This document shows, one piece after another, positions 35,660 to 36,879 of a stretch of DNA of 64,000 nucleotides (position 1 is its first letter; each line of letters starts with the position of its first letter). The stretch spans positions 1,312,001 to 1,376,000 of the forward strand of contig CAVWUU010000004.1 of the NCBI GenBank assembly GCA_963758295.1, read 5' to 3'. The translations under genes and the position numbers were made by a program. The stretch comes from Candidatus Eremiobacteria bacterium (GTDB lineage Bacteria > Vulcanimicrobiota > Vulcanimicrobiia > Vulcanimicrobiales > Vulcanimicrobiaceae). The notes beneath the pieces are model-generated. The model did no database searches. It was not told the origin of the DNA and saw nothing but the letters and a program-made list of their open reading frames with translations.

Positions 35660-35770
35660 GTGTTTTGAGGCGTATCGTCGTCGGGCGCGAGAAGCGAGGA
35701 AGCGAAGCGGTCTAAGGACCGTGAGCGCCCGAGCGACGAAGCCGCCCGGCGACGAGACGCCTCAAAACAC
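35660..35770. repeat. Long inverted-repeat (REP/MITE-like) element between convergent genes
   Basis: 28-bp arms at 35660-35687 and 35743-35770 with 2 mismatches; inner hairpin CGGTC-TAAG-GACCG. Confidence 0.75.
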
Positions 35771-36805
35771 CGGGATGATGTCTTCGGGTCCGATGTGCCC
35801 GACGTCGACGCCGTCGAGATCAAGCTCCGGGATCGCCGGAAACTCGATTCCCCATTCACCGACGATCGCGCGGACCCGTGCCAGCGCGGTCTTCCAGTTC
35901 TCCGCCTGCTCGTCGTAGGTCAGCACGCCGAGCCCCGCATCGCGCGCGTGCTGCACGAGTACCCGATGGTTCGGCAAGAAGTACTCGGGGATGTCCCAGA
36001 ACTGGTTCGGCGGCTCCCACAGGATCATGCTGAGGAAGACGAAGCCCGCGCGAAGCTGCTTCGTGATCATCGTCTTGTACTCGTCGCTCAGCCCCGGCCA
36101 ATCGCGCTCGAGCACGGTCAGGCAGATCGCGAGGTGACGCGCTTCGTCCTGACCGACCTTCTTGAAGATCTCTTTGAAGAGCGGATGCGTCGCCTTCTTC
36201 GACATCCCGAAGAACAGCGTCGACGAAGCGACCTCGCCCATCATGAACGACGTGAAGAGCACGCTGAGCGGATACTTCTCGAGCGAGGCGCTGTAGCCGG
36301 TCCAGTACCGTCCGCCGTTGTGATACAGCCAGCCGATGTTGTTCTGGGCGGCTTTCGCCAGATCGCTCGTCGCTTCGAAGTCCATCGGCGCGCCGGGCAC
36401 GAGCTTCTGAATCGCGCGCTGGCAGACTTCTTCGTGATTCATCTCGTCGTGCGTGATCGAGAAGAAACATTTGCGGATCGGATCTTCCTGATGCGTCTCG
36501 AACGCGTGGATCGTCGCCTTCGCGAAGACCGCGGGGCCGGAGCCGTCGAAGTTCGCGAGGACGGCATACCAGTACATGATTCCGAGCCGCTGCTCTTCGG
36601 TGAAGTCTTCAGGGCGCAGCGTGTCCCACGGAAAATCAGACGGGTTCCAGACGTGCCGCTTCGCGCGCTCGTAGAGCTCCGCGAGCTTCGGCGTCTCGAC
36701 GCGCCACTCCATCGGGAAGATGTTCGGCTGCGGCACCTCCGGGTACGGCACGAAGCCGTCGGCCGGGACGACCAGCTGGTTCTTGTCGGGGACGGTGGTG
36801 GACAT
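35762..36805 (-). CDS. Ferritin-like di-iron carboxylate protein (uncharacterised)
   Basis: LYERAKRHVWNP N-terminal motif; candidate ligands NFD, DEMNH, GE, DEARH with four-helix-bundle spacing; intact 347-aa ORF. Confidence 0.82.
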   Translation of the reverse strand: MSTTVPDKNQLVVPADGFVPYPEVPQPNIFPMEWRVETPKLAELYERAKRHVWNPSDFPWDTLRPEDFTEEQRLGIMYWYAVLANFDGSGPAVFAKATIHAFETHQEDPIRKCFFSITHDEMNHEEVCQRAIQKLVPGAPMDFEATSDLAKAAQNNIGWLYHNGGRYWTGYSASLEKYPLSVLFTSFMMGEVASSTLFFGMSKKATHPLFKEIFKKVGQDEARHLAICLTVLERDWPGLSDEYKTMITKQLRAGFVFLSMILWEPPNQFWDIPEYFLPNHRVLVQHARDAGLGVLTYDEQAENWKTALARVRAIVGEWGIEFPAIPELDLDGVDVGHIGPEDIIPVF

Positions 36806-36830
36806 CGGTCGCGCGCCAATTCCTTTCCCT

Positions 36831-36879
36831 ACCGAATGGTAGGTTAGGCGAGTATACCCGCTCGCGCTGCGAGAATCAA
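36831..36879 (-). promoter_or_regulatory. Sigma70 promoter with PaaR-like operator at the transcription start
   Basis: Minus strand TTGATT (36879-36874), 17-nt spacer, TATACT (36856-36851); ACCTA-N4-TCGGT (36844-36831), one mismatch from ACCGA-N4-TCGGT. Confidence 0.7.

Follow-up and report, generated by a model that had tools for sequence, protein, structure and literature searches.

A gene for a 347-residue di-iron carboxylate protein was found in Eremiobacterota, a group of soil bacteria, under a predicted PaaR-type operator and in genomes in which the five-gene phenylacetyl-CoA epoxidase is missing; hence, the protein probably does the ring-oxidising job. We put at about two in three the probability that it is a single-polypeptide, BoxB-like phenylacetyl-CoA ring epoxidase that replaces PaaABCE. 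The initial annotation of the window (the whole stretch of 64,000 nucleotides that was analysed) had proposed a single-subunit, PaaR-controlled enzyme acting on phenylacetyl-CoA and reduced by an upstream flavoprotein. The paa linkage, the operator and the mutual exclusion with the five-gene enzyme held within the phylum, the protein fell into no characterised family, the flavoprotein donor was not supported, and the substrate and reaction are what we infer from these.

The gene is an intact open reading frame, as annotated, running from an ATG at 36805 to a stop at 35762 on the minus strand.

35762..36805, minus strand: di-iron carboxylate protein (ferritin-like, R2-type fold), 347 aa, candidate phenylacetyl-CoA ring oxygenase (ORF, conservation, fold)

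A 1035-aa frame beginning at a GTG was rejected as the gene start, being merely an open upstream frame, and homologs start at the ATG. The two DExxH motifs (D120-E121-H124 and D220-E221-H224) and the further ligand candidates D87 and E191, all noted previously, proved near-invariant, being kept in 174 to 176 of 176 aligned family members, with the D87 position occupied by D (167 members) or E (9 members). The six predicted metal ligands are D87, E121, H124, E191, E221 and H224. Foldseek indicated an R2/R2lox-like fold, and the best 18 matches were R2lox proteins. The protein passed no Pfam or NCBIfam cut-off and matched no NCBIfam family at E≤0.001, while rubrerythrin/ferritin profiles gave weak matches in 34/34 members scanned. 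No Bacillota names occurred among the 240 matches listed, most of which carried no name. Homologs are present in harmless bacteria that are in culture. C128 and C228 are also near-invariant, each four residues past a ligand histidine, at what we take to be the places where R2 proteins carry the radical tyrosine. Below, clade 1 is the clade of the window protein, and clade 2 is the sister clade, which has a 2Fe-2S reductase of its own.

HMM and structure searches, suggested at the time of the initial annotation, found no characterised family that holds the protein, and membership of the PaaA, BoxB, R2lox, AurF, R2 and desaturase families was ruled out by profile, residue and context tests. The earlier view that it was neither PaaA nor PaaC agreed with the profile searches, which gave no PaaA/PaaC membership (PF05138, TIGR02156): PF05138 was absent from matches down to E 0.1 in all 34 members scanned, and profile-profile comparison with 11 PaaA sequences gave a probability of 0.5% and an E value of 0.12 (shallow profiles). 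Thus, in contrast to PaaABC(D)E, with its catalytic PaaA, the protein has no detectable sequence homology to that enzyme and is one polypeptide without PaaB, C, D or E adjoining (paaB, paaC, paaD and paaE in 0/80 clade-1 loci). R2lox proteins have Glu as the first ligand, Val three residues on and a Tyr-Val cross-link, and the numbering E69/V72 used here comes from the PDB titles of the structure matches. The protein resembles R2lox in its R2-type fold with two ExxH motifs but is only 14 to 19% identical, has Asp rather than Glu as the first ligand in 167/176 family members and has G/A at residue 90, three after that ligand; from motif spacing, D87 would be the equivalent of E69. The arylamine N-oxygenases AurF and CmlI have a third histidine ligand, in HxxxExxH. 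Their profile (PF11583) matched weakly in 34/34 members scanned, with the window protein below cut-off (24.3 versus 29.6 bits) and some relatives reaching E 1.9e-9, and some relatives are labelled 'AurF' or 'diiron oxygenase' in source databases, but the third histidine is missing, position 217 being I or V in 169/176. In ribonucleotide reductase R2 the radical Tyr lies four residues after the His of the first ExxH, a place taken here by C128; PF00268 was weak in 3/34 members (best E 0.005) and gave no membership, and the acyl-ACP desaturase profile PF03405 also fell short (12.2 versus a cut-off of 22.7 bits). The benzoyl-CoA 2,3-epoxidase BoxB is alike in having a ferritin-like di-iron fold (predicted for our protein) without a structural subunit. 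It differs in length (a 477-residue chain versus 347 aa) at 10% identity, no NCBIfam or PDB sequence match linked the two, and the neighbours of the di-iron gene are paa genes rather than boxA, boxC or boxD. According to the accessible part of one source, BoxB is a monomeric di-iron CoA-ester epoxidase for which small amounts of its reductase suffice and which does not turn over phenylacetyl-CoA (PMC4498308). No description of the family was found in the accessible text of the literature searched, a body lying mostly outside the subscription journals.

The promoter TTGATT-N17-TATACT annotated upstream of the gene was confirmed at 36879-36851 (1 match versus 0.2 in shuffles), and a similar −35/−10 pair lies 5′ of most Eremiobacterota homologs.

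36851..36879, minus strand: sigma-70-type promoter TTGATT-N17-TATACT (motif search)
36828..36843, no strand assigned: PaaR-type operator palindrome CCTACC-N4-GGTAGG (CCTACC-ATTC-GGTAGG), just past the predicted +1 (comparative)
55913..55928, no strand assigned: second operator copy with 1 mismatch, 31 nt upstream of the E1-alpha gene
52180..52767, minus strand: TetR-family repressor, PaaR-like (TetR_N + TetR_C_24)
55960..56982, plus strand: 2-oxoacid dehydrogenase E1-alpha-like gene, a conserved paa neighbour

The string ACCTA-N4-TCGGT reported at the predicted +1 is present at 36844-36831, but as a pattern it does not exceed chance (ACCGA-N4-TCGGT with up to one mismatch has 6 window matches versus 3.95 expected, and 21/100 shuffles reach 6), and its register needs correction. 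The element conserved in homolog upstream regions is CCNACC-N4-GGTAGG, its centre is 2 nt away from the reported string, and its right half extends into the ribosome-binding site. This palindrome had 2 window matches versus 0.17 expected, a test that is partly circular and supportive only, as the pattern was built from homologous loci and overlaps the ribosome-binding site. Independent support for the predicted operator is comparative. Among 45 scorable Eremiobacterota loci (three with too little upstream DNA were left out), 36 had the palindrome with at most one mismatch, 2 had it with two mismatches and 7 lacked it. The TetR gene was not found in any of the 7 genomes without the operator and was present in 3/3 operator-bearing genomes tested; hence, the operator is conserved within the phylum and is lost together with TetR. 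The same palindrome stands in front of paaA/paaZ in paaABCDE genomes. A palindrome that lies over the promoter, is common to paa genes and co-varies with TetR has the traits of a PaaR regulon.

The PaaR-like TetR gene that had been called at 52180-52767 is real, with TetR_N and TetR_C_24 domains; its best PDB match was SCO3833 (E 1.4e-52), and its 64 to 69% identical relatives head paaABCDE clusters. The operator core CNACCRNNYGGTNG shares the geometry of the consensus CNAACGNNCGTTNG of Thermus thermophilus PaaR and has the ACCGACC half-site of the repeat of Burkholderia cenocepacia PaaR, both of which repressors are released by phenylacetyl-CoA, according to the accessible parts of these reports (PMC9493321, PMC2770484). 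The Streptomyces PaaR site is AACGA-N4-TCGGT in the table of a review seen in part (PMC10933834). In contrast to these known repressors, binding and CoA-ester response of the window TetR are predicted. The E1-alpha gene with its own PaaR-type operator (55913-56982) is a conserved neighbour of di-iron and paaABCDE clusters alike. It is a probable member of the regulon and has no E1-beta gene adjoining; the enzyme is a possible source of phenylacetyl-CoA from phenylpyruvate.

The presence of paaN and paaI downstream of the di-iron gene was corroborated, both genes passing NCBIfam cut-offs.

32147..33826, minus strand: paaN, semialdehyde dehydrogenase of the ring-opened product (TIGR02288, 800.7 versus cut-off 578.75 bits)
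31704..32150, minus strand: paaI thioesterase (TIGR02286, 138.5 versus cut-off 118.9 bits)
29973..31700, minus strand: acyl-CoA synthetase lying in two frames, with an approximate 5′ end (PRK12582-like, under the cut-off)
36901..38274, minus strand: Lpd/MerA-like pyridine nucleotide-disulphide oxidoreductase, a neighbour only

The di-iron gene and paaN do not form a simple operon in the window, as they are separated by three genes on the opposite strand and a short fragment on the same side, and the acyl-CoA synthetase is a genus-level neighbour rather than PaaK. The GC content was 69% in the window versus 60% in the assembly, climbing near window 5.4-7 kb and staying high through to the contig end, for about 81 kb. 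Of the 84 genes called in this tail, 47 are matched by a homolog in the rest of the assembly, including mutS, mutL, miaA, miaB, der and efp (names read from translations) at 52 to 76% identity and in the same order, while the di-iron region has 80 to 91% DNA identity to other Eremiobacterota loci (L001-L003). For the 70%-GC tail (window ~5400-64000 and all of contig C4 beyond it), the most likely origin is a faulty join to sequence from a different Eremiobacterota genome; a very large transfer is possible. The contamination figure of the assembly (1.19%) does not reflect this probable chimeric join. The window indeed lacks paaABCE, as stated in the initial annotation, but this is no evidence by itself, and claims of presence and absence rest here on other genomes because the tail is probably foreign to the assembly. 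Frameshifts interrupt genes at 15587-18063, 20491-21895, 29973-31700 and 52764-55900, among them mutS- and miaB-like genes, the acyl-CoA synthetase and a large secreted beta-propeller protein; so many split genes are expected of low-coverage long-read sequence. A lower-GC stretch at 43608-48050 (minus strand) encodes a 1480-aa protein with a subtilase-like region, as read from its translation.

The distribution of the family was determined in 301 Eremiobacterota genomes, with canonical PaaA/C scored as PF05138 matches at E<1e-80; the divergent PaaA-like cluster of G241 was left out of the PaaA count, and seven unpublished genomes count only among those with none of the genes. The family was detected in 40 genomes (37 with clade 1, including G000, and 3 with clade 2 only) and canonical PaaA/C in 30, with an overlap of 0. 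Among the 65 genomes with PaaI over cut-off, 37 had the di-iron gene, 26 had PaaA, G118 had a paaA fragment at a contig edge and G157 had neither, while neither gene was found in 229 of the 236 genomes without paaI. Exactly one of the two was thus carried by 63/65 paaI genomes. Anti-correlation with paaABCE had been put forward as a check, and the di-iron gene and paaABCDE proved mutually exclusive within the phylum, a pattern extending over ~15 genera on one side and 9 on the other. As the genomes are kin, these counts overstate the number of independent events and no P value is given.

Exchange was also visible within one genus (g2), in which 17/19 genomes have the di-iron gene and the other two, G221 and G263, instead have paaABCDE behind the same operator. 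In the native syntenic locus of G221 only the di-iron gene and one neighbour are gone, and E1-alpha, TetR, flavoprotein, paaN and paaI are kept; the swap in the two genomes may be one event. In other genera the same slot reads '<E1a TetR> operator paaZ paaABCDE paaG paaI paaJ paaK' (L083-L085) versus '<E1a TetR> operator di-iron paaN paaI'. Linkage of homologs to paa genes was evident throughout the phylum: the neighbours in 48 Eremiobacterota loci included paaI (39), paaN (34), TetR (27, plus 2 found separately), paaK (5) and paaZ or its MaoC domain (5), with 0 paaA and 0 reductase genes. Di-iron gene, paaN and paaI are contiguous in the compact loci L019, L026, L043-L045 and L047.

In close relatives, genes like paaK, paaF and paaG stand together in an operon of their own, none of them reaching its cut-off. 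The PaaG-like genes of clade-1 genomes scored 180 to 253 versus a cut-off of 345 bits, and the score in the two g2 paaABCDE genomes (236 bits) was likewise below 345. In the clade-1 genomes tested (sets of 4 and 5), neither PaaZ nor an alternative oxepin-CoA hydrolase exceeded its cut-off; PaaN-type pathways with separate, long-unidentified hydrolases are known from a source accessible in part (PMC9007349). Stand-alone MaoC-domain genes near the di-iron gene (L025:8129-8581, L030:8095-8556, L037:7611-8060), 39 to 47% identical to the PaaZ hydrolase domain, are candidates for a separate oxepin-CoA hydrolase. Other oxygenase-like clusters were seen in the phylum. An 8-kb contig of G241 (L087:2017-7891) carries a divergent paaABCD-like cluster, 37% identical to the local PaaA, together with MaoC, aldehyde dehydrogenase and PaaK-like genes. 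A stand-alone PaaA/C-like protein of ~235 aa (L088:13245-13961, L099:9330-10028, L100:10008-10712; PF05138 E about 1e-28) is accompanied by SDR and CoA ligase genes and, in L088, by a 2Fe-2S reductase; these genes point to another uncharacterised aryl-CoA oxygenase cluster in Eremiobacterota.

The sister clade sits inside proteobacterial paa clusters. In 80 metagenome loci, several of them near-duplicates, the neighbours were the reductase (73), paaN (54), paaG (44), paaK (39), paaX (39) and paaA (11). PaaG, PaaK and PaaN pass cut-offs in L106, and the order in L089/L090, whose genomes have no PaaA, is di-iron, reductase, paaG, paaI, paaK, paaJ, paaZ, paaX. The count for paaA (within 10 kb in 11/80 loci and in 7/36 complete-looking clusters) is probably an undercount, as paaA sits at the locus edge, and both genes are present on Vitreoscilla pVF1; the di-iron protein and reductase pair of V. 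filiformis has the accessions WP_089418347.1 and WP_089418346.1. In Variovorax, the copies occur in variant clusters that also encode a CoA transferase, a MaoC dehydratase, an OB-fold thiolase and an indolepyruvate oxidoreductase. Two short divergent PaaA-like genes (25 to 28%) were noted in clusters L176 (7539-8357, 19434-20213) and L177. The main rival to the epoxidase keeps the regulon but has another reaction or substrate, the protein either hydroxylating phenylacetyl-CoA, with PaaI releasing hydroxyphenylacetate, or oxidising a substituted aryl-acetyl-CoA channelled into the same lower pathway. The coexistence with paaABCDE in some proteobacterial clusters and in actinobacteria, the Variovorax clusters and the position of paaI as the most constant neighbour speak for it, and for 4-hydroxybenzoate the PhgABC route of CoA ligase, hydroxylase and thioesterase is described in the accessible part of its report (PMC11848710). 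We nevertheless consider it unlikely: the neighbours of the di-iron gene still include PaaN or PaaZ, whose steps follow ring opening, PaaG is over cut-off in sister-clade clusters, and Eremiobacterota carriers without PaaA have nothing else recognisable to make the epoxide.

Outside Eremiobacterota the exclusion between the di-iron gene and PaaA is partial. In 151 genomes of the actinobacterial family of G315, 15 had both genes, 38 the di-iron gene only, 66 PaaA only and 32 neither, so that PaaA was present in 15/53 di-iron carriers versus 28.4 expected if independent; PaaA was over cut-off in 8/31 genomes behind L048-L080. Among 59 non-Eremiobacterota carriers without PaaA (in large genomes only part of the candidates was scored, and those of small size are MAGs), 25 had PaaN (9) or full PaaZ (16), 34 had neither and 6 had a close PaaK. 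The 32 non-Eremiobacterota clade-1 loci had paaZ as a neighbour in 1/32 and no paaN, paaI or paaK; the order in L074 is TetR, di-iron, paaZ, CoA ligase, paaG-like, in L063 and L076 the di-iron gene is accompanied by a paaG-like gene and a similar palindrome, and the remaining loci vary. Actinobacterial copies L049, L053, L056, L060, L067, L070 and L077-L080 have upstream TGTGAC/GTCACA half-sites and no PaaR palindrome, which points to a different regulator. Some actinobacterial copies may well have shifted to other substrates. Three observations would suit a general acyl-ligand oxidase of the R2lox type, unrelated in function, that entered paa loci in some lineages by capture: R2lox proteins head the structure matches, many actinobacterial MAG copies have non-paa neighbours that vary and an upstream motif of another kind, and 34/59 carriers have neither PaaN nor PaaZ. 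This explanation was given very little credence, as linkage to paa genes is found in each clade and with either of two unrelated repressors (PaaR-like, PaaX), and in Eremiobacterota the presence of the gene follows that of paaI almost exactly.

The initial annotation had the upstream flavoprotein as a possible reductant, but genomes with paaABCDE retain this gene, and three di-iron carriers lack an orthologue of it. The reductase of the sister clade had no orthologue in 35/36 clade-1 genomes, the single match belonging to a second, clade-2 copy, and searches of clade-1 genomes found no electron donor for clade 1. The lack of a cognate reductase in clade 1, the weak rubrerythrin/ferritin matches in every member scanned and the co-occurrence with paaABCDE in some lineages could also indicate an accessory paa protein, acting on a reactive intermediate to remove or detoxify it (by epoxide deoxygenation or peroxide handling), or one dependent on a partner subunit that escaped recognition, in place of a stand-alone ring oxygenase. 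PaaABCE can itself remove the epoxide oxygen, according to a source seen in part (PMC9493321). An accessory of PaaABCE should co-occur with it, whereas overlap was nil in Eremiobacterota and below expectation in actinobacteria, and no conserved small partner gene adjoins the gene in 80 clade-1 loci; such a role therefore appears quite improbable.

For the favoured ring epoxidase, the following sequence of events is proposed. The TetR repressor, given its co-loss with the operator, would bind the palindrome at +1 and be released by phenylacetyl-CoA, as is established for PaaR elsewhere. A four-helix core would hold two metals, presumably iron, through the six ligands indicated by conservation and fold. 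The reduced centre would activate O2 and, as its replacement of PaaABCE suggests, epoxidise C1-C2 of the ring of phenylacetyl-CoA. PaaG-like, hydrolase and PaaN steps would then open the ring; PaaN is encoded at the locus, and paaK-, paaF- and paaG-like genes, below cut-offs, lie elsewhere in close relatives. Electrons would arrive via the adjacent 2Fe-2S/FAD reductase in the sister clade and be borrowed from some other carrier in clade 1. More tentatively, and with somewhat more doubt than belief, the family may represent a third, independently recruited lineage of aromatic-CoA epoxidases, with clade 1 as a one-gene form that has no structural subunits or dedicated reductase anywhere in the genome, uses a general carrier as donor and swaps with paaABCDE under the same operator within one genus.

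The genomic marker of the phenylacetate pathway is paaA/paaC, and a 2026 survey of 6,536 genomes filters on PaaABCDE; the words 'ferritin', 'diiron' and 'alternative' do not occur in its accessible part (PMC13186573). The locus contributes a reductase-less clade, a near-complete partition of a phylum, a swap within a genus under one operator and co-loss of operator and repressor. A one- or two-protein arene epoxidase, if confirmed, would be far easier to study and use than a multi-subunit complex. Should the protein indeed be an alternative epoxidase, the paaA/paaC marker would overlook more than half (37/65) of the sampled Eremiobacterota that bear the pathway.
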